NCBI GenBank assembly: GCA_009779935.1 | Contig: WRAX01000005.1 | Location: 24,248 to 88,247, forward strand | Direction: 5' to 3' | Length of the DNA: 64,000 nt | From: Defluviitaleaceae bacterium | GTDB lineage: Bacteria > Bacillota > Clostridia > Lachnospirales > WRAX01 | In this document: one piece after another, positions 5,589-52,988 of the stretch | Position numbering within the stretch: the stretch's first letter is position 1 | How the letters are laid out: every line of letters begins with the position of its first letter | Made by a program: the position numbers and the translations under genes | Notes under the pieces: generated by a model | Database searches by the model: none | What the model was told of the DNA's origin: nothing | The model's input: the letters and a program-made list of their open reading frames with translations, nothing else

Positions 5589-5594
5589 ATAATT

Positions 5595-8339: not shown

Positions 8340-8446
8340 ATATTGCGCAGACTGACTGGTGAATGAAAAAGTTTTCAAAATTTGCAGACAAATAATAATA
8401 GATGGCGTATATATAAGCAACACAACAAAATTTTGGAGGTAAAATT

Positions 8447-8794
8447 ATGAACAAGTCAATTTTTGGGCTGGATGAGAGATGGGCGGCGTTTTTGGCATAT
8501 TTCTTCACATTTATCGGTGGCATTGTGGTGCTGGTTTTGGAGAAGGAAAACAGATTTGTGCGCTTTGCCGCATTGCAGTCAACAGTATTTTTTCTGGTAA
8601 TTTTGGTGGTTAGCTTGGGATTGAGCTTATTATCCAATATTTGGTTTATCGGTTGGATTTTTGGCATTGTGCGGTGGGCTGTGGGCGTTGCAGGTTTTGC
8701 TGCTTGGCTATATCTTCTCATCACCGCTGCCAGCAACCGCGCAGTAAAAATCCCCATCATCGGGGATATCTGCTGGGAGCAGGTGCATAAGTAA
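8447..8794 (+). CDS. small integral membrane protein (resembles DUF4870 family from memory)
   Basis: 115 aa, 3 hydrophobic helices; N-terminal WAAFLAYFFTFIGGIVVLVLEKENRFVRFAALQS pattern. Confidence 0.6.
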   Translation: MNKSIFGLDERWAAFLAYFFTFIGGIVVLVLEKENRFVRFAALQSTVFFLVILVVSLGLSLLSNIWFIGWIFGIVRWAVGVAGFAAWLYLLITAASNRAVKIPIIGDICWEQVHK

Positions 8795-8863
8795 AAACCA
8801 AAATTAAAAAAACACCATTGCATTAAATGTAATGGTGTTTTTTAACGGGTTTGGAATATATCA

Positions 8864-24673: not shown

Positions 24674-24703
24674 CGGCATACCTCCAAATAATTTATTTGG
24701 CAC

Positions 24704-30214: not shown

Positions 30215-31549
30215 ATGAAAACGATTTTGTTGACATTTGCTTTATTTTTTTCGATGGCGGGCATTGCCCCTGTTAGCGTAGAAACCTTGGATGGACAAGC
30301 CCGAAGGCAAGCTGTGATGGAAGCCAATTTGGAAGAATGGACAATTCTTTTCTTGTCGTGGGAAGTTTTTGATGAGGAAAATTTCCAAGCCCCACCCCGT
30401 TTGATGGTGGAGTTTTTAGCAGAATCTTTTACGGATATGTATGCGGATGATTTTGGATTTAACCTACCCGCATTAATACAAGAAGCGGGGTACCCCGCAG
30501 AGCTTTTTGTGGATTATATGCTGGAAATAATGACCCATCCCGAATATGCAAGGATTTATATACAGGCATTTGGCATAGCGTGGGTAGAGCGGGCCATTGC
30601 AATGATGCTGGATGACTTGATGGAAATTTATCAAATTGGCGGGCCGGAATATCTTGTGCCTTTTTTTAGCTATATGCAGGTGTTTTATGTGGGCACAGAA
30701 ATGCAGGCCCCGCCCCGCCCTGTGTGGCATTTTACACCACCCACCCGTGAAGAAGTGGAAGACGCACTAAACACCGCCCTTGCCCGCCATGGTGTAGATT
30801 TGGCGGGCTATCTATACACCACCCGTGGACATTCTTTGGAATATTTTATGGATTATTTTATGGATTATTTGATGTGGCTTATTGACTATGATGGCCAATT
30901 GTTTGCCATGGCTTATGGCCACAACTGGCTTGCCCAACTAATGGACGAAATTGTTGGGGAAATTGTGGAATTTCAGGATATGTGGGTGGTAAGCATCGTT
31001 TCTTCTGCCGTAAAAGTTTTGGGTGTGGAGGATGCTATTTACTTCGTATTACAGCTTTTTGACTTAGTTTGGAGCGATGAGCATTTTGACGCCATATACA
31101 CCAACCCATATCTGGAAGAGATTTTGGCAGATTTTACCGTGATGGATGAAGCCTTTCTTAGCAGGCTGTTAAACATGCCCTTGCAAGAAAGGCCAAGCAA
31201 TGCCGTTTTATCAACCATAACACAGGATGATTTGGAGGTGCGCCACAGCTTTTCCCCAATATCCGTCCCCATGTTTCTTTTTGAAGGGCATGTGTATGGG
31301 GCGGCGATGAATGTGTTTTTTCGCAATGAAAGCGAAAGTGCCGCACACATCAACTTGCTGATTATGGATGAGGCAGGCAACAGCCAAGGTATTGAAGAGG
31401 TTGTAGATGCAGGCAGTGATTTTGTGCTCCAACTGCCTGTCGGATGGCACTTGGTGGCGGCAATTATAATACCCACCCAAGGTGATTTTGATGGCAAAAT
31501 TGCAGGCGAATTTGCTTTTCGCTTTACCCATGGCTCTATTAACCAATAA
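30215..31549 (+). CDS. secreted acidic hypothetical protein
   Basis: 444 aa; signal peptide MKTILLTFALFFSMAGIAPVSV; internal YFMDYFMDYLMW tandem; RBS GGGAGG. Confidence 0.6.
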   Translation: MKTILLTFALFFSMAGIAPVSVETLDGQARRQAVMEANLEEWTILFLSWEVFDEENFQAPPRLMVEFLAESFTDMYADDFGFNLPALIQEAGYPAELFVDYMLEIMTHPEYARIYIQAFGIAWVERAIAMMLDDLMEIYQIGGPEYLVPFFSYMQVFYVGTEMQAPPRPVWHFTPPTREEVEDALNTALARHGVDLAGYLYTTRGHSLEYFMDYFMDYLMWLIDYDGQLFAMAYGHNWLAQLMDEIVGEIVEFQDMWVVSIVSSAVKVLGVEDAIYFVLQLFDLVWSDEHFDAIYTNPYLEEILADFTVMDEAFLSRLLNMPLQERPSNAVLSTITQDDLEVRHSFSPISVPMFLFEGHVYGAAMNVFFRNESESAAHINLLIMDEAGNSQGIEEVVDAGSDFVLQLPVGWHLVAAIIIPTQGDFDGKIAGEFAFRFTHGSINQ

Positions 31550-31561
31550 AGCCAAATACAA

Positions 31562-31610
31562 AACACCATTACGGGGTTTGTCCGTCCCGCAATGGTGTTT
31601 TATATTTTTT
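31562..31610 (+). terminator. terminator; last core feature before the AT-rich island
   Basis: Arms AACACCATT-CGGG/CCCG-AATGGTGTT then T-rich tract. Confidence 0.6.
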
Positions 31611-31625
31611 GTAATTATCCCGTTA

Positions 31626-31889
31626 ATGGAGAAATTTCCAACCGAGAAAAAGATCGTTGCCCATTTTTTGACTATTCGCTATCCAGATGATGTAACTTGC
31701 AATTATTGTGGCCCTACAAAATTATATCCACTTAACAAAAGTATCAAGGTATTTAGGTGTAATGGTTGTACAAATAGCTTCTCCCCTCTCTTTGAAAAAT
31801 CATCAACAGACTTGCGTGAGTGGTTTTATGCCATATACCTATTTCTAAACGGTAAAAGGGGCGTTTCTGGCTTGCCAAATACAAAGTGA
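31626..31889 (+). pseudogene. IS1595-family transposase, N-terminal zinc-ribbon fragment only
   Basis: MEKFPTEKKIVAHFLTIRYPDDVTCNYCG...FRCNGCTNSFSPL...LREWFYAIYLFLNGKRGVS matches the IS1595 N-terminal pattern; the DDE domain is absent. Confidence 0.7.
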
Positions 31890-33686: not shown

Positions 33687-33749
33687 ATGAAATCAAAAAC
33701 AAAGTTAACTGTGAGCATCTTTGGTGGCAGTAATGCTGTTGTTTGTTAA
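33687..33749 (+). CDS. 20-aa ORF, candidate short hydrophobic signalling peptide
   Basis: RBS GGAGGG 6 nt upstream; MKSKTKLTVSIFGGSNAVVC; lies about 250 nt upstream of the XRE-TPR regulator. Confidence 0.25.
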   Translation: MKSKTKLTVSIFGGSNAVVC

Positions 33750-33994
33750 GTTAAAAGATGGCCAAAATTGTGGCATGTGATTTATAACATCTTCTAAGTG
33801 ACCATTATGCAATATTGTTACACCAAATGATAAGCTGCATTAATAGCTTATGCATGCTCTTCCGCAAGGTGATGGAGTGTGGTGTAGTTGAAAATATTAG
33901 CTTTACTATCAGTGGCAAATATGATACAATATAAGTACAAAAAATTACAAAAAAACTGAAAATCCCCTATTTTATGGGGGAGGGGGGAGAAATT

Positions 33995-34917
33995 ATGAAA
34001 ATGTACATTGGTAAAATGGTTAAGAAGTTGCGCTCGGAAATGGGCATGAATCAAGAAGAATTAGCAGGACGGCTTTTTATGTCAAACAAGAGGCTTTCAC
34101 GTATTGAAACCGATAAGGCGAAGGTGGATGTTTGGCAAGCCATAAAAATATTAGAACTTGCCGGTCAATCTTTTGAAGATTTTTGGTTGATGCCCTTGGA
34201 TTCTTCTGATTATGACGGATACTTGATTTATCGAAATTTAAGAAAGAGTTTGCGTGATAATAACAATGCTGAAGCGGAAAGTTTTTTGGAGCAATTCAAG
34301 AAAAGTCCAATATCCAAAGAACCTTTTGCCCAGCAAACCATAGCATGGGCAGAAATTAGGCTAAACAACAATTTAAGCCATGAGAAGCCATAAAAAAATT
34401 ATATGAGGCATTGCGTATGTCAAACCCAGAGTTTGATGAATCCAAGATAGCCGAATACCGCTTACAACACCAAGAAATACGAATACTGATGAGCATCGCA
34501 GTGAGAAGTAACAAAATCGGTGACAAGGATAAAGCGATATACATAACGGAAGCCCTAATTAATAACAGGGAAAATCTCCGAACTTCGGAGGATGATAAAG
34601 CAAGCTTCCTGCCTGCGCTTTTGTTCAATCTGTCTAATTATCTTGGTCAAGCTGGTAAGATAAGAGAATCCTTGCAAGCTTGTGACAAAGGCTTAGAAAT
34701 TTGCCGTGAGTATAATCGCTTTGATCTTACACCAGTATTGCTACATAATAAGGCTACTAATCAACGCATGTTAGGAGAAGAAGAACGCATGTACAGAACC
34801 CATCTAATAAGAGCATATCATTCCGCAAATGCCATGGGTCAATTTGATGTGGCCGAAGAGGTCAAAAAAGATGCCGAAGAAAGCTTCGGCATCAACATCA
34901 TGAAGTTTTGGGATTAA
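33995..34917 (+). pseudogene. XRE-HTH + TPR regulator (RNPP-like architecture) split by a frame change
   Basis: HTH part (MKMYIGKMVKKLRSEMGMNQEELA...) stops at 34391-34393; the TPR part is open in the -1 frame from 34384 (EAIKKLYEALRMSNPEF...); together about 300 aa. Confidence 0.55.
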
Positions 34918-35279: not shown

Positions 35280-35460
35280 TTGGTCTTAGTTTCGGCAATA
35301 ACCCTGCCACCGGCAATGGCATCATGGATGTTGGCAGGATGAACTTTTATGTGGAGCAGCAGACGACCTTCAACCTTCTTACCCCCCAACAAATCCACTA
35401 AACTGCGTAGCGCATGCTGTCTTTACGCTTCGGGGGTCGATGATGGTGTAGTTAGGTTTA
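35280..35460 (-). mobile_element. IS5-family transposase remnant (left, inverted copy)
   Basis: Minus-strand translation gives NYTIIDPRSVKTA and GGKKVEGRLLLHIKVHPANIHDAIAGGR in different frames; 35280-35434 is the reverse complement of 37482-37636. Confidence 0.7.
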
Positions 35461-35544
35461 GACTTTTGACCAAGTTTAATTTCGCTTTTTTCACCACACT
35501 ACATGGATTTTTATCATCAAAACGAAAGTGAAGGGGGGGTGCAA

Positions 35545-37137
35545 ATGTTAAAAATTTTAAAAATAATACTAAAAGAGCCGTCATCTAAGATAATTTTGGC
35601 ACTTTATCCTTTAATCGCTTTGCTGTCGGGTATTTTGCTAGTATATAGCAATGATATGCTCAGAAATGTTTTCAACAACCACATAATGCTATTAGAGTTT
35701 AACAACTTTTTATATAGCACCCTGTTTGTAGTTGGACTATTTGTTTCATTATTCCTTTTAAGGGTTGTGAACTCATATATTAAAGAGAAACTTCATCATA
35801 CAGGTGCGAATAATTTAATTGAGCACTACACAAACAAACTACTAAAAGCAGACTATTCATACTATCACAAAAAAGAAGCACCAGCAATTTGGGATAAGTT
35901 AGAAAGGTCTACTATTGGTACAGGGAATTTCTTTGGGTCGCTCATAAGTTCTATTAGTACAATGATAAGTTTTGTTTTTTATGCAATTGTTATATTTAGA
36001 ATAAATTTATTTGCAGGATTGATAACAATGATAGCTATTCCTATTTATTTCTTTCTTACTGTCGGATTTAATAAAAATTTCATGTCCTTGCAGATGGAGC
36101 TGGCTAATAGCATGGGGCAACTGGCTGTGGTGGGTCAAGAACCTCTCGAAAATGTGGTGAACGTAAAAACAAAAAATGCATATGGTTTTTTTGTGAATCG
36201 AATAATGAAGATACAAAGAAAAATATCCAAACTGTTTCGTAAGTTCAATGTTTTGTCTGAATATCATAATGGCATAACGGGTCTTGTGTCTGTCGTTGTA
36301 CCCATCTTGGTATTATTTGCTACATTGCAGGTTTCGGACACATTTACAACAGATATGGGGACAGTGCTGATACTTTATATTAACATACCGCTGTTTTTAA
36401 GTGGATTTACAAGCATTTACAAGAAATATATTATGTACAAAACCCACAGACATTTCATAAACGGTCTCCTAGAATTTGACGATATGCCCATAGAACATAG
36501 CGGGGAGATAGAAATAAATGACTTTGAAAACCTAGAAGTAAAAGGGGTTAAGGTGCGCTTTGACGATACACGAATTATCAGTATTCCTGATTTCGTTGTG
36601 AAAAAAGGAGAAAGAGTAATGATATTTGGGGAGAGCGGAATAGGCAAATCAACCATCTTCAACATTATAGTTGGCATTCATACAGAATACGAGGGCGATA
36701 TAATAATTAACGGTATTAATTTGCGAAATATCAGCACCTATTCCTTGCGTAATGTTTTTGGTATCGTTTTACAATCTGTCAATATTTTCTCCATGTCACT
36801 GGAAGACAATATCTTGTTAGGCATTCCCAATGACAATTTGAATGAATCAGTTAGCCTTGCCAACCTTAAAGAACAAATGGATTTTAAGGTCGACCAGGAA
36901 CTAAATAACAAAGTTGTGTCGGGTGGCGAAAAATCGCGTGTTGGGTTAGCTCAGACCCTAGCTCGCAATACCCAAGTGTTGATGATAGACGAAACGTTTT
37001 CCAGTATAGATGAAGGAATGGAAGAGCGTATAGTTAAGGGGCTTTTTGAAATGCATCCACACAAAACCTTTATATGTATCAGCCATCGCAGTTCAAGCCA
37101 GACTTATTTTGATAAATTCGTGGACTTCAATTTATGA
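35545..37137 (+). CDS. ABC exporter, fused TMD-NBD half transporter
   Basis: ATG 35545 after RBS GAAGGGGGGG; 5-6 TM then Walker A GESGIGKST, signature VSGGEKSRVGLA, Walker B VLMIDETFSSID; no N-terminal C39 peptidase domain. Confidence 0.85.
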   Translation: MLKILKIILKEPSSKIILALYPLIALLSGILLVYSNDMLRNVFNNHIMLLEFNNFLYSTLFVVGLFVSLFLLRVVNSYIKEKLHHTGANNLIEHYTNKLLKADYSYYHKKEAPAIWDKLERSTIGTGNFFGSLISSISTMISFVFYAIVIFRINLFAGLITMIAIPIYFFLTVGFNKNFMSLQMELANSMGQLAVVGQEPLENVVNVKTKNAYGFFVNRIMKIQRKISKLFRKFNVLSEYHNGITGLVSVVVPILVLFATLQVSDTFTTDMGTVLILYINIPLFLSGFTSIYKKYIMYKTHRHFINGLLEFDDMPIEHSGEIEINDFENLEVKGVKVRFDDTRIISIPDFVVKKGERVMIFGESGIGKSTIFNIIVGIHTEYEGDIIINGINLRNISTYSLRNVFGIVLQSVNIFSMSLEDNILLGIPNDNLNESVSLANLKEQMDFKVDQELNNKVVSGGEKSRVGLAQTLARNTQVLMIDETFSSIDEGMEERIVKGLFEMHPHKTFICISHRSSSQTYFDKFVDFNL

Positions 37138-37140
37138 TTA

Positions 37141-37800
37141 GAACCCACTTTCAATAAAAGTCCTGTTTGTAGTGGGTGGCCTGCAGGTGCTTGCGAGTAA
37201 CTCAGAACCCGTTTTCAATAAATCCCCAATCCTGCCGATATACAATGATAAACAGGATGTGAAAACATATGAAATATCGCACCAAATACCCAATGACCTT
37301 ACCGCCAAGCAATGGAGCTCCATAAAACACTTATTCGAGAAAGGAAATCGTGGCAGTCATTTCCGTACACATAGCAAGCGAAAACTTGTTGATGCCGCAC
37401 TTTACCTTAACAAGGCTGGATGCCATTGGAGGCAGTTGCCAAAAGATTTTCCTAAGTGGCAGACTGTGCATTCATTCTGCTCCCGAAGCGTAAAGACAGC
37501 ATGCGCTGCACAGTTTAGGGGATTTGTTGGGGGGTAAGAAGGTTGAAGGTCGTCTGCTGCTCCACATAAAAGTTCATCCTGCCAACATCCATGATGCCAT
37601 TGCCGGTGGCAGGGTTGTTGCCGAAACTAAGACCAAATACCCCACAGTCAAGGGTATTGTTGGTGGTGCCGGTTTTCGTGGCACTTTCAAGAAAGCCCCA
37701 GAAGCGATCTTAGTGAATTTGATTTTGGCTTTGGAGTTTTCGGCAAAAAGAACCCCCCACAAATCGGCGGCCCCGGCGGCGGCAACTGGACTATAATACC
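37141..37800 (+). mobile_element. IS5-family element remnant with internal deletion (right copy)
   Basis: N-terminal domain LTAKQWSSIKHLF...LYLNKAGCHWRQLPKDFPKWQTVHSF joins directly to RSVKTA; later KKVEGRLLLHIKVHPANIHD in another frame; two GAACCCnnTTTCAATAAA copies at 37141 and 37205. Confidence 0.7.
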
Positions 37801-37979: not shown

Positions 37980-39341
37980 ATGAAAACAAAAATCCCCAAA
38001 ACCATCACAATCCTAACTCTACTAACACTAACCATGGTCTTCTATGCCTGTGGGGGTACCGAAGTAGAGTGTGGATACAACGACGACGATATCGGCAATT
38101 ATAATGATTATAAAGCCAAACATGACTATGCGTACATAAGCATACAACCCACAGAAGACGAACTTAGACATCAAGTATCACAACTTTTGATTGAAGACCT
38201 GGAATTACTTTACAAAGATATGCGTTCAAACATTATGGCTCTTTCAAATGCAGTGTATAGACGAACCCAGCACGAAGTAGGGTTTGGCATTGATATTTGG
38301 AGAAGCATGAGGCGGATTATTGAAAATCTTGAAACTGGAAGCGTGCAGTTTGGTGCAGGTGTGACGGATTTTGACGAGATGCTTGCGGCCGGCTCGCAGC
38401 ATATAGTTAGTCGATTGAATTTTTAGGTCATAACACATCTGGCCTACTGCATCTTGGGGCATCCACCGAGGGCTTTGCGGGAATTGGGTGGGATGACCAC
38501 TATGGGTCCATACTCGTCCGTCCGTTAAGAACATATCAATCCATTCAAGAAATTGATACTTCATTCAACCCCTAGGCATGGCACCAGCAAAAGCTTAATA
38601 AGTGGCAATATTGCGTATTTAAGAATAGAATCTGCTTTAAATATAGATTTAGACAGAAATAATTTAATGCAATTTTATGAAGAAATACAGAATTATAGCC
38701 ATCTCATTATTGATATAAGAAATCATATGGGAGGGCATTATTTTCATTTTGCTGACGTGGTAATGAGTCCACTTATAGAAAGTGCCGTTCATGCAACGTA
38801 TTATCAATTTTTTACAGAAGGAGAGCACCGTGCTTGGCAAATGGCAAATGTGGATGCATTGTGGGACGAATTCTATGAAATGGGTTGGCGCACTATGGAA
38901 GTTACGAATTACGAAGCTTCCGTATTTGTATCAGAAAATAACATGATATATTTTAACGAAAGTGATTTGGGCTATCTATCCTATGCCACAAGATTCCGAT
39001 ACACAATTCATCCTTCGTACACAAATTTTCCTTTCAGAGGCAAGGTGTGGTTGTTGATTGACGGCGCACAATCAGCAGGAGTAGGGGCTGCCATATATGC
39101 CGAAACATCAGGATTTGCAACAACGGTGGGCAGACCAACAGGTGGCGTTACACATGCGGAACGAACTTATTTGAGATTGCCAAACTCTGGGGTGTATGTA
39201 CATGTAGATGTAGGTTATATCGTAGATGCCAATGGCCGCTCTGTGGTAGAATTTGGATGGCCACCCCAAATACCCAGCCGCCCGGGCTTGGATGCTTTGC
39301 AGACCGTACTTGCTTTGATACAGGAGGGCTATGGGCAATAA
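37980..39341 (+). pseudogene. S41-like peptidase lipoprotein, disrupted by frame changes
   Basis: Lipobox MVFYAC; three pieces in frames 0/2/0 (37980-38426, 38426-38575, 38553-39341); C-terminal piece has IIDIRNHMGG and aligns with the intact paralogue at 47308. Confidence 0.6.
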
Positions 39342-39547: not shown

Positions 39548-40954
39548 GTGGCTTTATTGCATAACAATTTAATAATAAATAAAAACAGCGAAAGATTTAC
39601 ACCTTTTCTAATCAACCTACTGTCCGGAAGAAGGCGATTGCTTAAAGATGATGAATTTCAACTCATAAAATCCATGGCATTAAAACAGGACTTGGCGGAC
39701 TATACTGAGGATGAGTTAATTTTATTCGGAAACTTAAAGGCGGAGAAGCAACTTTTGGAAGAGAATGAACGCATAATGATTGAAGAGAAGATGAATGATA
39801 TAGGTTATTTTCATACAAACACGGACATTCCTGATGAAATTGAATTTTCAATTCACTTAACGTGGAAGTGCAATATGAGTTGCTCCTACTGCATTGCCGG
39901 CTCGTATGTTGGCAATGATTTGACCATAACGTCAGAGCATGTGGATAGCATCTATAACTTCTATCTAAATTTTATGAGCGAAGCTGAGCTTCAAGCAAAG
40001 GTTAAGAGCATTGGAATATCTGGCGGCGAACCCTTGCTGAACTCTGAAACTGTTGGTGCCCTGAATTACATAAATAAAAAATGGCCAAATGCTAAGTTAG
40101 GAATACTTACAAATGGTGTGAATTTGTTGAAATTCTATCAGCACTTACCTTTGAGAAATATCGAGGAAGTTCATGTTTCTTTAGATGGCTTAAAAGAGAC
40201 TCATCTGGATAGGTGATACAGTAACGAAAAAGTTTCACCAGATATCTACGATAATATAATAGGTGGCATAAAAAAACTTTTAGAAGATGAAATTTCAGTA
40301 ACGATTAAAAGCTGCATTGATAAAAATAATTATAGAGAACACCAAGAATTTAAGAGCTTCTTAAAAGAAGAGGGTATTACCACATCATCTTTTTGTACAC
40401 ATCAGAATTCTCATATAATGGACTTTAATAATCATTTAAACATAGATGAAAACTCCAATAGCGTAGAGGACATACGAAGAATAAGGGAATTTGTCTTTCC
40501 TGACCTTGCCTACATGCCACCTTTTTCTGACCTTGCTATTTTATATCAGATGATGAGTCGAATAAGTGACGAACCTTTCATGCCAAAGCGCATGAGGTGC
40601 AGTAGCGGCTTCTTATCAAAATACGCATTTGCACCAAATGGAAAAATATATTTTTGCACCTGCAACACTGCGAGTTCAGGAATGATAGGAGAATATTATC
40701 ATCAAATGTCAATCGATAACTCTGTGATATCTGGGCTTGCGCACAGGAGTGTGATGCAAAGTGATGAGTGTAAAAAATGCCCATATAAATTTGTTTGTTT
40801 GGGTTGTTGTCCGAAAAACTCAGAAGGACAGCTTGCAGATATGACAAAGATGACCTGTGGTGTATTTGGGTTTCCTGAAATTTTAGATAATATTGAGTTT
40901 GACTACCGCACAATTGCAAATGTCAAAAATAACTCAGATAGAAAGGTGGTTTGA
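39548..40954 (+). pseudogene. radical SAM/SPASM peptide maturase 1, single in-frame TGA
   Basis: CNMSCSYC (CxxxCxxC), GGEPLL, C-terminal SPASM Cys pattern (YFCTC...ECKKCPYKFVCLGCCP); ORFs 39548-40216 and 40418-40954 share a frame that is open across 40217-40417. Confidence 0.8.
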
Positions 40955-40956
40955 CC

Positions 40957-42530
40957 ATGAAGAGATTTTTGCTTTCCACTCTGGCGTTCTTCATGTTGCT
41001 ATTTTTTGTTGCTTGTAGCAACAATGAATCGGAAGCTGATGACTACAATGACAACCACGAAAACGAAGCGAAAGCTATAATGGTGGTTGATATCGAGTTT
41101 AATAATGCCAATCCAATAATGGCTCGCATAACCAACTATGCTGTAACAGCACAAATCGGAAACAGAGCTTATTTTTTTCATGATGCTGATGAAGCTGCCA
41201 CAGAATTTGTTAATATTGCAGAAGCCATAATACTGCAGCTGGAAAATTACATAGCAATACCATACTTTCGACTGCAAATTTATAACACACCTAATCCTAA
41301 AAACTATCGATTTAGCCATGTGGAGATCAGTGTAAATTTTGATAACAACGATACCTTTGGATGGCTCGCCAACCAACTTTCCCGTAACCACTTGCCCATG
41401 TGGCTGTCGGTAGGGTTGGAAGCTTACGTAAAAACGAATTTAGGCATTTTTGCACCAACCGACAGTAGCTTTTTATCAGGTACTCATTTTAGCGACTTAT
41501 CATTCGCTCCTAATATGCAGCGAACCACCGAAAGAAACATTGCTATTAATATGGCTTATGATTTTACAAGCCACTTATCGGAATCAGACATACTATTAGA
41601 TCTTGTTGCATTGTATCAAACAGGTCATACGTATCAAGCAAATGAAAAAGCATCACGGCATTTTTATAACCACTTCGGGTGGCATATGCACACAGCCATG
41701 ATAAACATGGTCAACTCAACGATTGCGATAACAAGTGGAGTAGATGTCATAACCTTCTTTTTCAATTGCCTGAGCGACATACCGCACATTAATGATATTG
41801 CAAACTACATAGAATATATACGCAATGCGATTGATTTTACTGTGGATTTTATGGCGCAGTTTACTGATTTTGAGGCTGGTGATATAAGGGTTGATATTTA
41901 CTATGATGAGGAAGCCACAATAGCTTTCGCATTTAATGACTGGATAACCATAAGAGGGGCTTTAATATTAACTGGATGGCTCACGAAGTGGTGCATGCGG
42001 TTCTATATTGGGTGTATAGCCAGCAGGGTATTCGTCCACCCCGTCATCTTGAAGAAGGATTTGCCATGTATGTTGATTCCATTTTTATCCTTTCGGAAGA
42101 ATTTGACCATCAACTTGCCCATTTGAGCCATCTTGAAAATGAATTTGGTGAAAATGCTCTCAGAAACATGGTCAGTAAAGAGATTGACTTTGCTTGGCAC
42201 TTTATATCACACTATCGTCTAACCCGAATGGATTATTACTACACGGGGGATTTTGGGCATCGCATCCCATACTCAGAAGTGGGGTCGCCATACCACATCC
42301 CAGCTATTAACAGGCACGAAACGGCTGCTTCTTTTGTGATATACCTTATACACACTCATGGCATCGATAGCTTTGTACATGTACTTTGGGATACCCACAA
42401 TTTTTATCATACATACGGAAGGGATATACATGGTATGGTTGAAGAATGGCGGGAGTTTTTGCACTACTTTGTTGAGAATCATGAATATTATTACGAATGG
42501 GAATCGATATCCCAAAGCTTTTGGGGATAA
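40957..42530 (+). pseudogene. MA-type (HExxH) metallopeptidase-like lipoprotein 1, frameshifted
   Basis: Lipobox LLFFVAC; LPMWLSVGLEAYV; frame change at the G4 run 41956-41959; downstream frame carries MAHEVVHAV...LEEGFAMYV. Confidence 0.65.
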
Positions 42531-42572: not shown

Positions 42573-42886
42573 ACCAAGAAAATATGGGGTTGACCAACTC
42601 ATGCAAGCACTTACAAAGGAGGAAAAAACATGAAATCAAGCGATCAAATGACATCTATAATCGACTTAATGTGGGAGCCAGAAGAAACAGTGGAACTATT
42701 GTCCCCTACAATGACGCAGCAGTGTATGGATATGAGTTGTTATCCTGGCATTACACTCCCTTGGCTGTGTATGTCATGTTTTCCAATGAGCAGTAATCGA
42801 AATTGGATTTGTTAGTTAAAAGCTGAGCAAAGAAGCTGCTGCGTTACAAATACATCAGCGGTTGGTCAACCCTATATTTTCTTGGT
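42573..42886. repeat. 26-bp inverted repeat pair flanking precursor gene 1
   Basis: ACCAAGAAAATATGGGGTTGACCAAC 42573-42598 and GTTGGTCAACCCTATATTTTCTTGGT 42861-42886; 25/26 complementary. Confidence 0.85.
42630..42815 (+). CDS. Cys-rich precursor peptide 1 (61 aa)
   Basis: RBS AAAGGAGG; MKSSDQMTSIIDLMWEPEETVELLSPTMTQQCMDMSCYPGITLPWLCMSCFPMSSNRNWIC. Confidence 0.7.
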   Translation: MKSSDQMTSIIDLMWEPEETVELLSPTMTQQCMDMSCYPGITLPWLCMSCFPMSSNRNWIC

Positions 42887-42901: not shown

Positions 42902-43117
42902 ATGGAAAAGAGTTTAGATACAGCAAACTCAATAACATCTATCATCGACTTGATTTGGGAGGTAGATGACGTAGCAGAAGTGGTTGTGCCAATGATGAAC
43001 AAGGCTTGCATAGGCAATAGTTGCAGCATGAATACAAGGTCTCCACAAAATCCTCCCGCTTCCACCTTGGGCGGGTCCTCAAGGTGCATTAAATCCACAA
43101 AAAGGAGTGGCGTTCAC
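42902..43117 (+). CDS. Cys-rich precursor peptide 2, no stop codon before the next gene
   Basis: RBS GGAGG; MEKSLDTANSITSIIDLIWEVDDVAEVVVPMMNKACIGNSCSMNTRSPQNPPASTLGGSSRCIKSTKRSGVH runs in frame into the lipoprotein ATG at 43118. Confidence 0.6.
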
Positions 43118-44539
43118 ATGAATGTAGCTAAAATTTCATCAAGATTAAAGTGTATTAGTAGGTTGCTTATTGCTATATCGGCATGTGTAGCATTAATACT
43201 ACTATCTGCTTGTAGCGAAGAAGCTAATGTTGCAGAACATTACAACCCAGAACCCACTATCATGGTAGAATTTGTCGAAACAAACCCCATAATACAGAGA
43301 ACCACAGGATATACAATCACCACACAGGTGGGTCGCAGAACATATCTATTTGAACAAGATGACCCAGTGGCTAACACCGACTTCATTAATACCGTAGAAG
43401 CTATAATCAATGGACTGGACCAGTTTATGGACATACCATACTTCCAACTACGTATACGTCACACCACAAACCCGCAAAATTACCATTTTTCTGCAACAGA
43501 GATTAGCTTTAACCTTGACAACGACGATACCTTTGGATGGCTTGCGCATATTTTGAGCCGTGGCAGTATGCCCATGTGGTTGTCGGTTGGATTAGAGGCT
43601 TATGTTAGGGCAGGATTGGGGTTGTTTGCGCCTGCTTCGCACAACCCTTCATTTGCATTGAATAATTCGGTATTTTTGCCTTATCTCTGGGGCACGGAAG
43701 AGCACACACAAGCTATTAATGCAGCTTATCATTCAGTGGTAACAAATGGTCACTTAGAAGATGTTATAAATCACATGCCACAATTTTGGCTATCTTTCAA
43801 TTTAATAAACAACAGCATTACTGCCACCAAAGATATGCTCACAGTAAACTTTGTTTTTGAGCATATCGGCGACCTCATATCTCTTGACGATATTGAGCAA
43901 TATATAGCTTATATATCCGATGCCAAAATGTTTGTAACAGACTTTTTTACTCAGCACAGGAATTTTGAGCTTTCTCCGATAGAAATTACCATAAATTATA
44001 CCAACACCAACACTTTTCCATTGGACATGTCGCTTCCTCGACGAATTTACATAAATGATAAGAGTTATGTTTCTGCAACGCCCGCACTGTTGGCTCACGC
44101 AGTGCTTTTGGATATTGATTCAGAAAATTTGCCAGTTGGTGCATTGCGCCATGGGATTTCCAACTACTTAAGAATCAACTTTAACGCTTCTGATAATTTC
44201 ACTCATGTGCTGCCTCATACAGATGCCGGCGATAGAAGTAAACGTCAAGAGCATTATCGTAATTTGCGTATTAATGGGAGTCACGCTTTAGCTTACAACC
44301 ATTTCGCCAACGGTTATCCTAACTATTTTAGTTACAACTCCAGTGCGGGTAATTTTAATATCGGCACTACCGATACTGCCCATTCCTTTGGCTTGTATTT
44401 GATAGATACATATGAAGTAGAATATTTTTTGGATGCCATATGGAATGTTGAAAATTTTGTAAATGTTTATGGTAGGGATGTTCACGGCATGATTGATGAA
44501 TGGATGATTTTTTTGAAAGATTTATTCAGCACCGAATAA
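43118..44539 (+). CDS. MA-like lipoprotein 2 (catalytic motif degenerate)
   Basis: Own RBS AAGGAG; lipobox ALILLSAC; paralogue of 40957 (FGWLAHILSRGSMPMWLSVGLEAYV); HExxH position reads AHAVL. Confidence 0.7.
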   Translation: MNVAKISSRLKCISRLLIAISACVALILLSACSEEANVAEHYNPEPTIMVEFVETNPIIQRTTGYTITTQVGRRTYLFEQDDPVANTDFINTVEAIINGLDQFMDIPYFQLRIRHTTNPQNYHFSATEISFNLDNDDTFGWLAHILSRGSMPMWLSVGLEAYVRAGLGLFAPASHNPSFALNNSVFLPYLWGTEEHTQAINAAYHSVVTNGHLEDVINHMPQFWLSFNLINNSITATKDMLTVNFVFEHIGDLISLDDIEQYIAYISDAKMFVTDFFTQHRNFELSPIEITINYTNTNTFPLDMSLPRRIYINDKSYVSATPALLAHAVLLDIDSENLPVGALRHGISNYLRINFNASDNFTHVLPHTDAGDRSKRQEHYRNLRINGSHALAYNHFANGYPNYFSYNSSAGNFNIGTTDTAHSFGLYLIDTYEVEYFLDAIWNVENFVNVYGRDVHGMIDEWMIFLKDLFSTE

Positions 44540-44604: not shown

Positions 44605-44793
44605 ATGGACTTAAAAAAGATTGAAATTTTGATTACACCGGTCATCGACCTTATATGGGAAGTTGATATTATTGAAAACACAGAATTTTTGCCAACCAAC
44701 ATGGTTGTAACTTGCATGGATATTAGTTGTGGTGGTTTTGGTCTTGTTTGTGGGGGTTCCTGGAAAACCCCCATGTGTCGCCCGTTAGGTTAA
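44605..44793 (+). CDS. Cys-rich precursor peptide 3 (62 aa)
   Basis: RBS AAGGAGG 8 nt upstream; MDLKKIEILITPVIDLIWEVDIIENTEFLPTNMVVTCMDISCGGFGLVCGGSWKTPMCRPLG. Confidence 0.7.
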   Translation: MDLKKIEILITPVIDLIWEVDIIENTEFLPTNMVVTCMDISCGGFGLVCGGSWKTPMCRPLG

Positions 44794-44885: not shown

Positions 44886-46260
44886 ATGAAGCTTATAAGG
44901 CATGTAATTCCAGTGGACATAAACAGTGAAGAAAAGCTGATGATTAACTCCTTAAACGGTATTATTGATAAAATTAGTGTACCTGTTTATGAAATCTTTC
45001 GAAAGTGGAGAGGGGTTGAGGAGATAGTTCCCGAATGCGAGGTGGAGGTCGCCTTATTTGAAAGCCTCAAAATGCGTGGGTATCTATCAAATAGCTCAAA
45101 AGATGAGGATGTTGTGAAAGAGAAACTTGTAGCTCGCTTACGGGAAATAAGCACCAAGCAAAGAGAGGCGTGCAGGAGCATCACCTTTATCCCTTCATAT
45201 AACTGCAACTTCCGATGCCCTTATTGCTTTGAAGGAGAAAACACTCTTAAAAAGGGAAATTATGACACCAGATCAAGTGGATGCCGCATTAGAATTGGCT
45301 GGTGAAAACTTGGAAAGCGTGGGGTTTTTTGGTGGAGAGCCTTTGTTGGCATCCAATAAAAAAATATTAGAATATATTATATCAAAAACCAAAGGGAAAA
45401 CTTTTAGTATCACCACCAATGGATATCACTTGGAGGAGTTTTTTGAAATCTTGTCACCACTAAAATTTTCTGAAATCTTGGTTACACTGGATGGAGGAGA
45501 GGACACTCACAATAGTCGTAGGTTTTTGGTGGGCGGCAAACCGACATATAGCAAAATTTTGAAGGGTATTGAAAAGTGCCTGTCAAATGGCATGCCCATA
45601 TGCATTAGGATGAATCTGGAAAGTAGTAATCTGGAAGAAGGTCAACTCTTGCAACAAGAACTTATGAATAGATTCCAAAAGCATGGAGGATTGGTTTCAT
45701 TTGAAATGGGAACCATTTTTGGAATACCCGAAGAAGACAAAGTAAACATTCTCACCCAGCTATATAAAACAGATGCTATATGTTCGCCAGAAGAAAAGCG
45801 AAAAAGAAATAGCATGGTGGGTAGATTTAATCCCATAATAAATAGCATGACCATAGGCACAAAGCTACGACCAACATACTCATTTTGCTCCGCTCACATA
45901 AGCAGCTTCATTGTTGATCCCTATGGAATGATATATGCCTGTCTCCCATCAGTCGGCAAACCCACCCTATCCATCGGCACATACTACCCCAACATCGAAT
46001 TTAAAGAAAAAAGCATTTACACCCGCAATATAGAAACAATCTCCGAATGCAGAGAGTGTGTCTATTCATTACTTTGTGGCGGGGGTTGCCCTTTGGGAGT
46101 TATGAGATGTGAAGATGATATAATGAAACCGGAGTGCTTCTCCATTAAAAACCAAGTGCATAACATATTGCCCAGGTTTTACAACATTAACGAAGATGCT
46201 AAAAATAAAAACAAAGAAACCAAAAACCAAAACCAGCCAGCAAAAGCTTGTTCTTTGTGA
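44886..46260 (+). pseudogene. radical SAM/SPASM peptide maturase 2, 1-nt frameshift
   Basis: CNFRCPYC lies in the frame of ORF 44817-45305; GGEPLL and the SPASM pattern (ECRECVYSLLCGGGCP) lie in the +1 frame of ORF 45229-46260; switch within 45236-45260. Confidence 0.8.
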
Positions 46261-46285: not shown

Positions 46286-47266
46286 ATGATGACAAACGCC
46301 CTAATATTAGCTGACATTGAAGGTATCATCGGTGTTAATGAAACATTTGGTGATAATGCCGGTGAATTGTTCACACAAGAAGTGGAGCTATGTATCAATG
46401 TCCTGTTGGAAAACGGCATCCACAAAATCACTGTTTGCGATGCCCATAACAAGGGGGACATGATTTTACCCAGAATTACCGAGGGGCGTGATAATGTCAA
46501 GCTGGTTTCGCAAGTCCGCAGTGTTTGTTTTGCAGAAAAGTATGACTTTGCAATAATGGTTGGATATCATGGAATGGAAGGCAGCCCCGGCATTTGGCCC
46601 CACACATACCGCTATGATATTAAGCAGACTTCTATTTTCGATAAAAGATTAGGAAAAAACATTCCCATTGGCGAGGTGGAGATTGGTGCCAGATGGCTGG
46701 GCTTTCATGGTGTGCCGGTTATTTTTGTATCTGGTGATAGAGAGGCGGCTTACGAAGCCAATCAATTCAACCCATACAGACAAGCTTCTTGTATAAGAAC
46801 ACTCCTTCAAACCGAAGAAATAAAGATTGAAGTTTTGCGTGATAAATTAGTGCAAGATCTCAAATCATCTTTAAAATTGGACTGGGATTTATGCTTGTCC
46901 TGTGATAATAGTCCCATTCTGGTTGAGTTTTACCACTCTGAAACCGCTGATGCCTTAGTGGCAAAGGGATATACCAAATTCATCAACGTAGATGGCAGCG
47001 AGGGCATCACATTCAAAAGCTGTTCTGAACTTGTTAGCGAAATCCATCACATAGCCGGCCTCTTAAATCAAATCGGATTTGAGGTGGAAACCGCCAACAT
47101 CGCTTTCTTAAAAGAGGTACGTGAATTAGCTAAAAATCTTGATAAAGATGCAGTTGCAAATTCGGAGGCCGGGCCACTACTTAGCACCAGCCTTACCCTG
47201 TTGGACAAGGTGGCTCGTGATAAAGTTATGGTGATTTTGAGGAGTATGGTGAATGGAAGTGTATAA
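46286..47266 (+). CDS. M55-family D-aminopeptidase (DppA-like)
   Basis: LADIEGIIG, VCDAHNKG, MVGYHGMEGSPGIWPHT and IGEVEIGARWLGFHGVPVIFVSGD align with B. subtilis DppA motifs as I recall them. Confidence 0.8.
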   Translation: MMTNALILADIEGIIGVNETFGDNAGELFTQEVELCINVLLENGIHKITVCDAHNKGDMILPRITEGRDNVKLVSQVRSVCFAEKYDFAIMVGYHGMEGSPGIWPHTYRYDIKQTSIFDKRLGKNIPIGEVEIGARWLGFHGVPVIFVSGDREAAYEANQFNPYRQASCIRTLLQTEEIKIEVLRDKLVQDLKSSLKLDWDLCLSCDNSPILVEFYHSETADALVAKGYTKFINVDGSEGITFKSCSELVSEIHHIAGLLNQIGFEVETANIAFLKEVRELAKNLDKDAVANSEAGPLLSTSLTLLDKVARDKVMVILRSMVNGSV

Positions 47267-47307
47267 ATCAATCCCCCAACACCCCAACCCGAAAGGTGGT
47301 AAATTAA

Positions 47308-48726
47308 ATGACAAAAAACAAAAACAAAAACATCAACCCAATAGCCCGCACCGGCCTCTTAGTTCTGGCGATGGTTCTTTTTCTATTAATACCCACAAGT
47401 TGCGGCAGCCAAAACAATGAAGATGAAACCCGTTTTGTCTTAGAGTCCGACTGCCCTTATCTTTACGACTTCCATTACTTAATACGGCTTATGGAGGATA
47501 CATTTCCTCACTTTGGTGTAGTGTATAGAAATTTTGGAGTGGATGTGAGACAACTGGCAGATGAAGCCATGGAGCGCATCGCAAACCATCCTGGTATGGA
47601 CGACAATATTCTTTTTGATGAAATTGCAGACCTTTTTATTCCACTTTTACCAGTTGTTCATGCGCAGCCCTTATTCTACCAGACCTTTCCACTCTGGAAA
47701 TACAGATTTGGAGGAGCTGGCGTAGGGCAACTAATAAGCGAAGGTAGTGCATTCAATGCAAATACTTTTAACAATGTGCGTTCAATAGAATTTTATGAAC
47801 GCCAAAGGCAAGCCGGATGGGACATGACACCACAAACGGAAGAAGCGTTCGCTTTGCGACCTGCTATACACACTGACCTTGATAATTTTCCTGTACAACC
47901 CGCATGGAATCGAATAGCAGCCACCTATATAATCGAAGAAGGCAGAATTGCTTATATGAACATACCTACTTTTATGCATCATGGCGCAGGCGGAATAGAA
48001 AGGGGAAGTTTGTTTAATTTCTACACAGAAATACAGGATTACGAGCACCTTATTATAGACATTAGAAATAATGGAGGTGGATATACCTTTTTTTGGGAAA
48101 ATAATATCATGCTACCACTATCGAACAATGCGCCCGTTGTACCAATATATAACTTTTTCCCCCAAAGCGAACGTGGCTTAAAGTTTGCACAAATTTTTGC
48201 TGATGACCACTACCAGAAAGGTATAGGAGCAGATTTGGTGACCTCAGAGTCATTTTCTGCCAATTATGCATATCCTATATCTATATCAGAGTTTTTAAAT
48301 GATAGGCAATTTCCATACCTAAACCAATCCGACCTACAATACTTAGGATATGTGGTCCCACTTACCCAAAGTGTAAGAAATCTAAACCCCATGTGGTATG
48401 TGCCGGAAATACCTTTCCATGGTCAAATATGGCTTTTGATAAATCCCGTAAACGCTTCATCTGCCAGCATGTTTGCCCGCCACGCCAAAGATTCTGGTTT
48501 TGCCACTTTGGTGGGGGAGCAAACAGGTGGACATTTTGGTGCTGGGACACTTCGTATTTTCTTCCCCCTACCCAACACAGGCATTATTGTAACTTGGGAT
48601 GTAGGCTACAAAACCGACCAATACGGAAGATCATGGGAAGAATTTAGAGTAATGCCCCACCACCAAAACATGCCTGGTATGGATGCGCTTGAAACTGTGC
48701 TTTTTCTTATTAATGAAGGGTATTGA
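47308..48726 (+). CDS. S41-like peptidase lipoprotein (intact copy)
   Basis: Signal/lipobox LLIPTSC; IIDIRNNGGGY, NASSASMFA, GEQTGG motifs of C-terminal processing peptidases. Confidence 0.75.
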   Translation: MTKNKNKNINPIARTGLLVLAMVLFLLIPTSCGSQNNEDETRFVLESDCPYLYDFHYLIRLMEDTFPHFGVVYRNFGVDVRQLADEAMERIANHPGMDDNILFDEIADLFIPLLPVVHAQPLFYQTFPLWKYRFGGAGVGQLISEGSAFNANTFNNVRSIEFYERQRQAGWDMTPQTEEAFALRPAIHTDLDNFPVQPAWNRIAATYIIEEGRIAYMNIPTFMHHGAGGIERGSLFNFYTEIQDYEHLIIDIRNNGGGYTFFWENNIMLPLSNNAPVVPIYNFFPQSERGLKFAQIFADDHYQKGIGADLVTSESFSANYAYPISISEFLNDRQFPYLNQSDLQYLGYVVPLTQSVRNLNPMWYVPEIPFHGQIWLLINPVNASSASMFARHAKDSGFATLVGEQTGGHFGAGTLRIFFPLPNTGIIVTWDVGYKTDQYGRSWEEFRVMPHHQNMPGMDALETVLFLINEGY

Positions 48727-48880
48727 TTGAGTAGGTGTGGGATGATGAATTGAACTCCAAAATTATACCACTATGTAAGTGGGTACTGACTTTATCGCTT
48801 ATGCCATGGTATAATTCCGTTAAATTCTATGAATGCAAATATACTTAATATTAAGAATATAGTCACGGAGGCCAAACCCC

Positions 48881-50707
48881 ATGAAACCCCTAACCCTCTG
48901 CAAACCCTATCTACTGCAACATAAATTAAAACTAACCCTATACATAACAATAACCCTATTAGCCACTGCCATATCCATCCTAACCCCCTTCATCATAGGT
49001 AACTTCCTTGATCACCTAATCGAAGGGGGTGATGTGGGGGCTATTTTGCGTTTTTGTGCAATATTTGGTGGGTTGGGGCTTTTGCGTATATTCAAAAACT
49101 ACATAACATCCCTTATATACGTTAGGATGCAAACCCAGATGAGTTACAACTTTCACCATGATATCACAAAACACATCCAAAGCCTTTCACTCTCCTACAC
49201 CAACAATCAAGACAGCACCTATCTAAACCAACGCATAAATAGTGACACAGGCAGCCTGATTGTATTCTGCATAACCATCCTTAACAACGTACTGGTAAAC
49301 CTAATTATGATTATTGCACCCTTTATCATACTGCTAACCATGAACTGGTTTATTACGGTTTTATTGGCCGGCTTTCTTTTGTTATATGCCGTCTTATATA
49401 CGGCCTTCAAAAAACCCATTTACAATGCAGGGTTTCGCTTAAAAGAAGCGCAGGGTAAGTTTTTCTCCACCCTTTTTGAACAATTAAAACACATCAAACT
49501 CATTAAAACAAACTCCATACAGCCCGAAATTAGCCGTAGGACTGATAGTGGATTTGTAAGATTTAAGGCGGCAGCTGTTCACAACCAAAAAGTAAGTTAT
49601 GTGTACTCCGGTATGGATGGATTTATATCCACACTCGCACAGATCGCCTTATTTGTGGTTGGTGGCTTGCAGGTGCTGTCCGGTAATTTCACCATAGGTA
49701 TGTTTACCATCTTTACCAGTTACTTTACCATGATTTTGGGTTCCAGTAGATATTTCTTTGGCCTTGGGGCTTCTTATCAGCACACCCTTGTCGCTTATGA
49801 TCGGGTCAAGGAAATATTGAACCTTAAACCCGAGGGTGGGGGTAGAAAGATAATTGACAGTGTTAGCAAGATACAAGCAACTGACCTAAGTTTTTCTTAT
49901 GCGGTTGGAGATACGAGCCACAGTTTAAGTCAAGACCAAAAAGAAAGGCGAGAAGGAAACAACCGGAAAAAAGATGACCCTCACGAGGGCATTAACTCAC
50001 ATAATATCAAAAATCATAATCCAGCCCTAAATTTCAACGAAACAGGCAGCACTACCAAAGCGAATCCTAAGGTGAACGACATCATCGAAACAAAGCGAAA
50101 AAGGGTTCTTGAAGGACTTAGTATAGAACTAACCAAGGGTAAAATTTATACCCTATCCGGCTCAAATGGCTCGGGCAAGTCCACGCTTATCAGTTTAATG
50201 ATGGGTATGTATGCTGATGAATATGATGGCCGTATAACCTATGACGGCACAGATATTAAAGACATAGACATGATTGCCGCAAGAAGAAGCCTTATTGGAT
50301 TTGCAGAGCAAGAACCTACACTGATAAAAGATTCTATTTTGTTTAACCTTTGTTTTAATGAGTCGCTCGATTCTCTTTGTTCATCAAACCAACGCATCAA
50401 CAATCTGGACAAGCATATGCAAACCCTTGGGATGAATGATTTTATTGATAAAAACGGATTGCATTTCCCGCTAAACGAAAGCAATACCAACACCTCCGGT
50501 GGAGAGAAGCAAAAAATATCCATCTTAAAGGTACTGTTAAAAGACCCACCTGTTATGATTTTTGATGAGCCTACATCTGCACTTGATTCTGATGCCACCG
50601 AAAGGTTTATGGGATATTTGCAGGGTATTAAAAGTAATAAGATTATTGTTATAGTTACGCATGATGGGGTTGTGGAGGAGATGTGTGATGAGAGGGTTTG
50701 TTTGTAA
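48881..50707 (+). CDS. ABC exporter (TMD-NBD) with a hydrophilic insertion at the start of the NBD
   Basis: 6 TM; Walker A GSNGSGKST, signature TSGGEKQKISILK, Walker B VMIFDEPTSALD; no C39 domain. Confidence 0.85.
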   Translation: MKPLTLCKPYLLQHKLKLTLYITITLLATAISILTPFIIGNFLDHLIEGGDVGAILRFCAIFGGLGLLRIFKNYITSLIYVRMQTQMSYNFHHDITKHIQSLSLSYTNNQDSTYLNQRINSDTGSLIVFCITILNNVLVNLIMIIAPFIILLTMNWFITVLLAGFLLLYAVLYTAFKKPIYNAGFRLKEAQGKFFSTLFEQLKHIKLIKTNSIQPEISRRTDSGFVRFKAAAVHNQKVSYVYSGMDGFISTLAQIALFVVGGLQVLSGNFTIGMFTIFTSYFTMILGSSRYFFGLGASYQHTLVAYDRVKEILNLKPEGGGRKIIDSVSKIQATDLSFSYAVGDTSHSLSQDQKERREGNNRKKDDPHEGINSHNIKNHNPALNFNETGSTTKANPKVNDIIETKRKRVLEGLSIELTKGKIYTLSGSNGSGKSTLISLMMGMYADEYDGRITYDGTDIKDIDMIAARRSLIGFAEQEPTLIKDSILFNLCFNESLDSLCSSNQRINNLDKHMQTLGMNDFIDKNGLHFPLNESNTNTSGGEKQKISILKVLLKDPPVMIFDEPTSALDSDATERFMGYLQGIKSNKIIVIVTHDGVVEEMCDERVCL

Positions 50708-51661: not shown

Positions 51662-52372
51662 ATGTCCAACGAAATGCCTATTTCAGTATTGATTAGAGGT
51701 GACACCCACATTCTTTACTTTGATGATGGCAAAATTGACGATGACGGCAATATAGAAACGGCCTATATACGGGTCACCCAAGGTGTTCTTTGTGCAGGCG
51801 ACAGCGAAGTTAAGGTTTCTGTTAATGACTATATTTCTAAGGCAGATTGGATATTACTTAGAGAATATAGACAAGCGGCTCAAAACGACTTTCTTAGGCG
51901 TGATACCTTTATTGATGTCAGCGAGGAAGTTAAAATGATTGCTTCGGGATATATTGAGAATAATGGGCTTGCCCTTGAGGGTGTGGAGGATTTGCGTGGT
52001 GCTGGGCTCATCCTTAATTATCGCCCGAGCAAAATCTTTCCTTGCGATTGCGACGATGCTGGATTTTTTGGAAGAAGGGTTCATCTTACCGGCTTTACGC
52101 ATACCCAAAAAACACCGTGGTTTTACAGCGGGATATCAGACAGGATAACCCTTTTTGTTTGCAACAGGGGCAAGGATGATGTGATGATTGGACTTGAAAG
52201 AAGTCCTGATTCGGCAAGTATCATTAAAGATGCTCAGGAGATATGCGTTGGCCCGGGGCAAACCGCAGAAATTACTCCTTACAAGTTTTCGCAGTTTATA
52301 AGGCTTACAGCAAGCTCTGAAAAAAGAAGGATAAACTGCGAGGTATGGCATCAAGCGCAGCTAAAAGTCTGA
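51662..52372 (+). CDS. hypothetical protein, no signal peptide
   Basis: RBS AAAGGAGG; 236 aa; C-terminal about 70 aa similar to the C-terminus of the next ORF. Confidence 0.6.
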   Translation: MSNEMPISVLIRGDTHILYFDDGKIDDDGNIETAYIRVTQGVLCAGDSEVKVSVNDYISKADWILLREYRQAAQNDFLRRDTFIDVSEEVKMIASGYIENNGLALEGVEDLRGAGLILNYRPSKIFPCDCDDAGFFGRRVHLTGFTHTQKTPWFYSGISDRITLFVCNRGKDDVMIGLERSPDSASIIKDAQEICVGPGQTAEITPYKFSQFIRLTASSEKRRINCEVWHQAQLKV

Positions 52373-52463: not shown

Positions 52464-52988
52464 ATGCAAAAGGAGGTGAAAAAGATAAATTCACTTGTTT
52501 TTAACACAACTGCCGAAGAGCTGCGTACCAGTGTTTATGGCTATAACCAAGGCACAAGCACGTTGCAGCTGTTGCAGTTGAATAGCGATGGAGAATTGCT
52601 TGTTTCGGGAGATTTTAGCCTGTCAAGTAACGTAACAATCGCAAACACGCTGCTGACTGTGTTGGTGTCCGGCAATCAATTCACAGCAAACACTCAAACG
52701 CTGGATGGTGTAACATCAACAGGCATTGCTCTTGCTGCAACGGATATTTCGCAATTGAAAACAGCGACCATGTTTGTTGACAACACAGATGCCAATCCGA
52801 TTACTGTAACTTTGCAATTAAGCCCTGATGGAACAACGTTTTTTGACGACCCCCATTATACGGATGTTGTAGTAGACGGAACAACTTCTACTATTATGGT
52901 AGTCGGAATCTTTGCACAGTATGCACAAATCGAATATGATGCGGGAGCAGGGGCTACATTCGCTGTGTATTACAATGGGCAAGCGTAG
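52464..52988 (+). CDS. hypothetical Ser/Thr-rich beta-type protein
   Basis: 174 aa; TMFVDNTDANPITVTLQLSPDGTTFFDD... segment parallels TLFVCNRGKDDVMIGLERSPDSASIIKD... of the previous ORF (I recall a DUF6385-like family, unverified). Confidence 0.6.
   Translation: MQKEVKKINSLVFNTTAEELRTSVYGYNQGTSTLQLLQLNSDGELLVSGDFSLSSNVTIANTLLTVLVSGNQFTANTQTLDGVTSTGIALAATDISQLKTATMFVDNTDANPITVTLQLSPDGTTFFDDPHYTDVVVDGTTSTIMVVGIFAQYAQIEYDAGAGATFAVYYNGQA

Follow-up and report, generated by a model that had tools for sequence, protein, structure and literature searches.

An in-frame TGA at a nearly invariant arginine codon of a radical SAM/SPASM maturase gene is probably a true nonsense mutation, within a RiPP island in decay

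Does the lone TGA inside a radical SAM/SPASM maturase gene of a Defluviitaleaceae bacterium mark a mutation that has broken the gene, a codon that is read through, a natural division of the enzyme into two proteins, or an error in the assembled DNA? We addressed this question in a window of 64 kb (the whole stretch of DNA analysed), whose relevant features are collected in the table. An earlier note, made from the letters alone, had proposed that the open reading frames (ORFs) 39548-40216 and 40418-40954 lie in the same frame, that the 201 nt between them lack a further stop and code sensibly, and that a single TGA therefore splits one gene, which we call maturase 1. Joint translation confirmed this description: the 469-codon frame contains exactly one internal stop, the TGA at codon 223 (context gat agg TGA tac), and closes with another TGA at 40952-40954. 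With the local base composition, the probability that the 67 intervening codons would stay free of stops by chance was ~0.005, and this stretch aligned without gaps to full-length homologues, encoding the conserved core residues I237, G240, L244, V251, Y262 and L272, among which I237 and G240 are invariant in the family.

Table. Features of the maturase island and its surroundings, in window coordinates.
Feature	Position	Strand	Basis
Regulator, RNPP-type HTH/TPR, frameshifted near 34366-34375	33995-34917	+	intact 303-aa JGI 3300010162 orthologue spans two frames
IS4/5-family (DUF4096) transposase remnants, 155-nt inverted repeats, 97% complementary	35280-35434 and 37482-37636 (35280-37636)	.	
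Second ABC transporter gene, between the 155-nt inverted repeats	35503-37137		
Maturase 1 pseudogene	39548-40954	+	translation; PF04055 and PF13353; full-length homologues about 450-480 aa
Maturase 1, N-terminal fragment, 222 aa, GTG start	39548-40213	+	exact product in four assemblies
Premature TGA replacing a nearly invariant Arg (alignment position 223)	40214-40216	+	homologue alignment
Maturase 1, stop-free stretch, 67 codons	40217-40417	+	ORF list, translation, homologue alignment
Maturase 1, C-terminal part with the full SPASM Cys pattern	40418-40954	+	translation, alignment, NCBI annotation
Lipoprotein-like gene 1, no Pfam family, frameshifted about 41905-41975	40957-42530	+	comparison with intact paralogue 43118-44539
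Precursor-like peptide A, leader ..SIIDLMWEPEE.., Cys-rich core	42630-42815	+	
Precursor-like peptide B, leader ..SIIDLIWEVDD..	42902-43117	+	
Lipoprotein-like gene 2, 473 aa, intact, no Pfam/NCBIfam family	43118-44539	+	
Precursor-like peptide C, leader ..PVIDLIWEVD..	44605-44793	+	
Maturase 2 (radical SAM/SPASM; the paralogue of the earlier note), frameshifted	44886-46260	+	two-frame alignment to intact orthologues
Intact downstream cluster genes	46286-50707	+	M55 peptidase 46286-47266, S41 peptidase 47308-48726, ABC exporter 48881-50707

The joined maturase 1 protein matched the Pfam families Radical_SAM (PF04055, E = 3.5e-10) and Fer4_12 (PF13353), and its N-terminal fragment carries the radical SAM motif CxxxCxxC (C108, C112, C115) together with GGEP and SLDG motifs. 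The Pfam SPASM model did not match the joined protein; the SPASM cysteine pattern C-x9-15-G-x4-C ... C-x2-C-x5-C-x3-C ... C is complete in it, as C351-x13-G365-x4-C370, C408-x2-C411-x5-C417-x3-C421 and C437, all of them invariant in the family. Matches to NCBIfam models were weak, were spread over many radical SAM/SPASM peptide maturases and all lay far under the cut-offs, and we rejected an assignment to a named equivalog, as maturase 1 missed the curated cut-off of CefB (NF038107, 85.7 vs 600 bits), of the SCIFF maturase (TIGR03974, 69.9 vs 425 bits) and of PapB (NF047865, 60.6 vs 340 bits). Its best relatives of solved structure were MoaA and the thioether-forming maturase CteB (PDB 5WGG). 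With the thioether-forming RiPP maturases of the radical SAM/SPASM type it shares the CxxxCxxC motif, a seven-Cys SPASM region and an N-terminal extension, and its cluster likewise holds Cys-rich precursors, peptidases and an ABC exporter nearby. Unlike in the CteB, SCIFF, PapB and CefB systems, two distinct maturases occur as a conserved pair in the family of the window, alongside an M55 peptidase and the leader 'IIDLIWE'. By its motif, its SPASM cysteines and its association with precursors, maturase 1 is a member of the radical SAM/SPASM RiPP maturase superfamily.

The three precursor-like peptides have in common an 'IIDL[IM]WE' leader and a Cys-rich core, and none of them matched an NCBIfam model; peptide B lacks a stop of its own and reads in frame into the ORF of lipoprotein-like gene 2. 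The same leader occurs in precursors of the isolate Anaerosalibacter sp. ND1 (8966-9163) and of the metagenome JGI 3300010162 (5554-5751). In the isolate, which served as the intact reference, the cluster comprises a precursor, a small HExxH membrane protein, maturase 1 (453 aa), maturase 2 (449 aa), an M55 peptidase and an ABC exporter, while the cluster most closely related to that of the window is the one in JGI 3300010162, whose maturase 1 is 50-54% identical. This paired-maturase family, with its leader, M55 peptidase and ABC exporter, stands outside every curated NCBIfam model; Anaerosalibacter sp. ND1 is one of the intact relatives in which it would best be studied.

To which residue does the stop correspond? 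Among 5.8 billion proteins searched, more than 30 proved to be clear homologues of maturase 1, nearly all uninterrupted, about 450-480 aa long and at best 54% identical. The stop falls within the gap-free motif H-x-x-R-R-[YF]-S, in a column ('nearly invariant R223') that is 97% Arg among the 29 other full-length homologues, with Glu in the single exception and Cys in none. The earlier note had arrived at the same residue by manual alignment with maturase 2, which is only 26% identical to maturase 1; BLASTP reproduced that pairing (LDGLKETHLDRXYS vs LDGGEDTHNSRRFL), and the homologues agree with it. The further proposal of a CGA-to-TGA transition is plausible and is one of two single-step routes: AGA is also one step from TGA, and AGA is used 100 times against 45 for CGA in the long ORFs of the window. 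The codon at this column is AGG in the paralogue and CGT (5) or AGG (2) in seven orthologues, and the ancestral codon is not recoverable from these orthologue codons. A scan of the GTDB species representatives for a sister strain yielded only relatives of at most 45% identity, no intact allele turned up in the JGI metagenome contigs when the exact DNA was searched with N in place of the mutated base, and a protein-based scan of metagenomes gave nothing close. The best intact homologue (465 aa, 54%) lies on contig k141_1667969 of ENA ERZ27257297, the same metagenome assembly as the window, which indicates a second organism with this maturase family in the same community.

Apart from the TGA, maturase 1 shows zero further lesions in 1.4 kb and retains all SPASM cysteines. 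It matches 103 of the 113 strongly conserved columns (96-113 in intact members) and carries 3 private changes at otherwise invariant columns (0-4 in intact members). Since the remaining frame is this clean and conserved, the lesion is probably recent in evolutionary terms, and the word 'recent' in the earlier note is plausible on the same grounds, as an undated description. We interpret the TGA as a genuine single-base nonsense mutation that turned a nearly invariant Arg codon of a maturase in a decaying RiPP island into a stop, and place the probability of this reading at about 0.86.

The most immediate doubt concerns the base itself. If the T at 40214 were a sequencing or assembly artefact, or the call of a minor allele, the real population would keep an intact Arg codon; the window is metagenome-derived, and the assemblies available for comparison may come from overlapping read sets. 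The exact 222-aa truncated product was present in four assemblies, which possibly share reads or one termite colony and are not fully independent: the MEGAHIT contig k141_1640169 of ENA ERZ27257297, which is the window itself; Logan SRR5215140, 100% identical over 6.2 kb; contig Ga0136643_10007492 of JGI 3300010369, identical over 15.5 kb save for 8 clustered mismatches at 36670-36686 of the window; and a 104,840-bp NCBI/JGI contig of a metagenome-assembled genome (MAG) of a Defluviitaleaceae bacterium. We read the TGA in the DNA of the first three, and in the fourth the annotated products end at the same residue. On this fourth contig NCBI annotates the two halves of maturase 1 as a 'radical SAM protein' (MCL2854526.1) and a 'SPASM domain-containing protein' (MCL2854527.1). 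The metagenome IMG 3300010369 was obtained from the P1 gut segment of the higher termite Labiotermes labralis (PMC7800795).

Because contig Ga0136643_10007492 differs from the window at these 8 positions, it represents a separate reconstruction, and the occurrence of the TGA in separate assemblies makes an assembler artefact very unlikely as its source. Substitution errors are eliminated by the consensus at normal coverage, and three other lesions of the cluster, described below, recur across assemblies as well. Considering all of this, we regard an erroneous or minor-allele T as very unlikely. The mismatches themselves occupy 17 nt (7123-7139 of Ga0136643_10007492) within the ABC transporter gene, where the window encodes IVGIHTE and the other contig ICVSPPA, and reflect strain variation or else a local assembly artefact in one of these contigs. 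We also considered whether the window is error-prone in general and discarded this idea, as the larger family-matched ORFs outside the island look full-length and the lesions, which recur in separate assemblies, all lie within the low-GC island.

A second possibility is that the UGA is recoded, as selenocysteine or through programmed or leaky readthrough, so that full-length maturase 1 would still be made. The frame downstream of the TGA is indeed fully open and conserved, and Bacillus subtilis shows low-level readthrough of UGA as Trp. Bacterial selenoprotein genes with a UGA-Sec codon and a bSECIS element, such as fdhF, resemble maturase 1 in several respects, namely the in-frame UGA, the open and conserved frame, a redox metalloenzyme as product and an anaerobic Firmicute as host. 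They differ from it where the signature of selenocysteine would be expected. The homologues of maturase 1 carry Arg at the column of the stop and never Cys or Sec. Four segments, taken around the TGA and 3' of it, were folded and compared with dinucleotide shuffles; none was more stable than the shuffles (z between -0.67 and +0.92), and no bSECIS-like hairpin was found directly 3' of the TGA, where the 62-nt fold reached -4.4 kcal/mol (z = 0.07), in line with the earlier note. Throughout the 64-kb window ARAGORN found no tRNA, and hence no tRNA-Sec, Rfam gave zero matches, and the large ORFs contained no SelA, SelB or SelD domain. The base after the stop is T, and in E. coli translation terminates efficiently at UGA-U. 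Furthermore, Trp or Sec in place of an Arg conserved at 97% would probably be non-functional, and the partner enzyme, maturase 2, is frameshifted regardless. Recoding therefore appears highly unlikely, and the view that the TGA is a nonsense mutation and does not encode selenocysteine is supported, with the caveats of the ancestral codon discussed above and of a comparison gene that is itself frameshifted.

If the organism read TGA as a sense codon, with a genetic code of the code 4 or code 25 type, the open frame would also be accounted for; the single in-frame TGA is the one observation in favour of such a code. Against it, TGA terminates 9 of the 29 ORFs of at least 250 aa in the window, including maturase 1 itself, and the housekeeping genes outside the island (pheS, pheT, prfA, glgB, nifS and a phosphoglucomutase-family gene) are unbroken when translated with code 11. 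The use of TGA as a terminator rules reassignment out for practical purposes. The only release factor gene in the window, prfA, is uninformative on UGA. A pattern of in-frame stops specific to TGA was likewise looked for and rejected: the regulator of the cluster is broken by a frameshift, and the stops in the first S41 peptidase copy are TAG and TAA. This copy (37980-39341) reads as a lipoprotein-like ORF, a TAG (38424), 33 open codons, a TAA (38526) and an S41-domain ORF, and its C-terminal half alone aligns with the intact paralogue downstream, at 39% identity.

The TGA is not an isolated defect, a point absent from the earlier note. Counting the stop in maturase 1 and the frameshifts in maturase 2, lipoprotein-like gene 1 and the regulator, at least four genes of the cluster are broken. 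Maturase 2, the reference gene of the earlier comparison, is itself frameshifted: relative to the intact orthologues of Anaerosalibacter sp. ND1 (449 aa) and JGI 3300010162 (443 aa), it switches frames at about 45250-45275, from frame 3 to frame 1 against the 449-aa protein, and the lesion could be placed in the aaaaaggg run at about 45251-45258, which is one base too long; the JGI 3300010162 orthologue reads ENTLKKEVMSPAQ there. In lipoprotein-like gene 1, a G4 run at about 41955-41958 lies inside the interval to which the frameshift maps, and in the regulator the Pfam matches to HTH_3/HTH_19 and to RNPP_C fall on separate ORFs. With maturase 2, a lipoprotein-like gene and the regulator each frameshifted, the island appears to be decaying as a whole. 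Given that both maturases and the regulator are broken, precursor-like peptides A-C are unlikely to be matured.

In maturase 1, a CGA or AGA codon would have become TGA by one base change, and translation would now end after residue 222. The truncated product would keep the CxxxCxxC cluster site and the GGE and SLDG motifs and would lack 246 residues, comprising the rest of the radical SAM core with I237 and G240 and the entire SPASM auxiliary-cluster domain. Because of this loss, maturase 1 is expected to be inactive, judging from its domain content. The NCBI annotation, which lists both halves as proteins, implies another outcome, a two-piece enzyme made of the 222-aa radical SAM fragment and a 178-aa SPASM protein with a translation start of its own, and the maturase 1 of the closest relative cluster, in JGI 3300010162, is divided into two ORFs as well. 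The 67 codons that follow the stop contain no ATG, GTG or TTG, and the ATG at 40418 is not preceded by a Shine-Dalgarno sequence; re-initiation there would still omit 67 conserved residues, the invariant I237 and G240 among them. All other family members have a single polypeptide. The division in JGI 3300010162 (7561-8954, ORFs of 147 and 317 aa) lies elsewhere, at residue 147, and results from a frameshift, a one-base loss from T8 to T7 at 7971-7977, which argues against a conserved two-piece architecture. We thus consider a functional two-piece enzyme extremely unlikely, and the two NCBI entries would be halves of one pseudogene.

As the lesion in JGI 3300010162 is of another type and at another site, maturase 1 appears to have been broken there independently, in a cluster whose maturase 2 (443 aa) is intact. 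This coincidence raises the thought that independent losses of maturase 1 recur among the termite-gut Defluviitaleaceae, as an adaptive or regulated switching-off rather than by neutral decay, or that leaky UGA readthrough supplies a trickle of full-length enzyme. Were recurrent loss true, one modification step could be turned off, for example if homopolymers or stops switched the peptide product between on and off states. We hold this scenario to be improbable. Maturase 1 is probably an ordinary pseudogene: as in other nonsense-mutation pseudogenes of decaying accessory clusters, a premature stop stands at a conserved sense codon while the homologues are uninterrupted, further frameshifts and IS remnants accompany it in an island that looks horizontally acquired, and nothing substantive sets it apart. 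Genome-mining surveys should leave the RiPP cluster of the Defluviitaleaceae MAG out of their counts of functional clusters.

The setting of the gene is compatible with the nonsense mutation and the decay of the island. The GC content of the island, at about 32000-56000, is 37-41%, compared with 43-50% in the flanks, and the inverted repeats around the second ABC transporter gene form a composite-transposon-like arrangement. On the simplest reading, the island would be a horizontally acquired RiPP cluster that came under relaxed selection and has been accumulating inactivating mutations. It also holds two DUF6385 genes (51662-52372 and 52464-52988) and a gene for a GT2/TPR protein (53477-55270). 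Upstream of the regulator, a reversed copy of ~170 nt from the interior of lipoprotein-like gene 2 (33693-33864 vs 43695-43860, 87-96% identity) looks like a remnant of a rearrangement. Further mobile-element content was observed near the island boundary, consisting of an intact IS110-family transposase gene (23507-24703, minus strand) and, at 30215-31889 on the plus strand, an ORF of 444 aa with no family assignment that overlaps the ORF after it, which carries an IS1595-type zinc ribbon.
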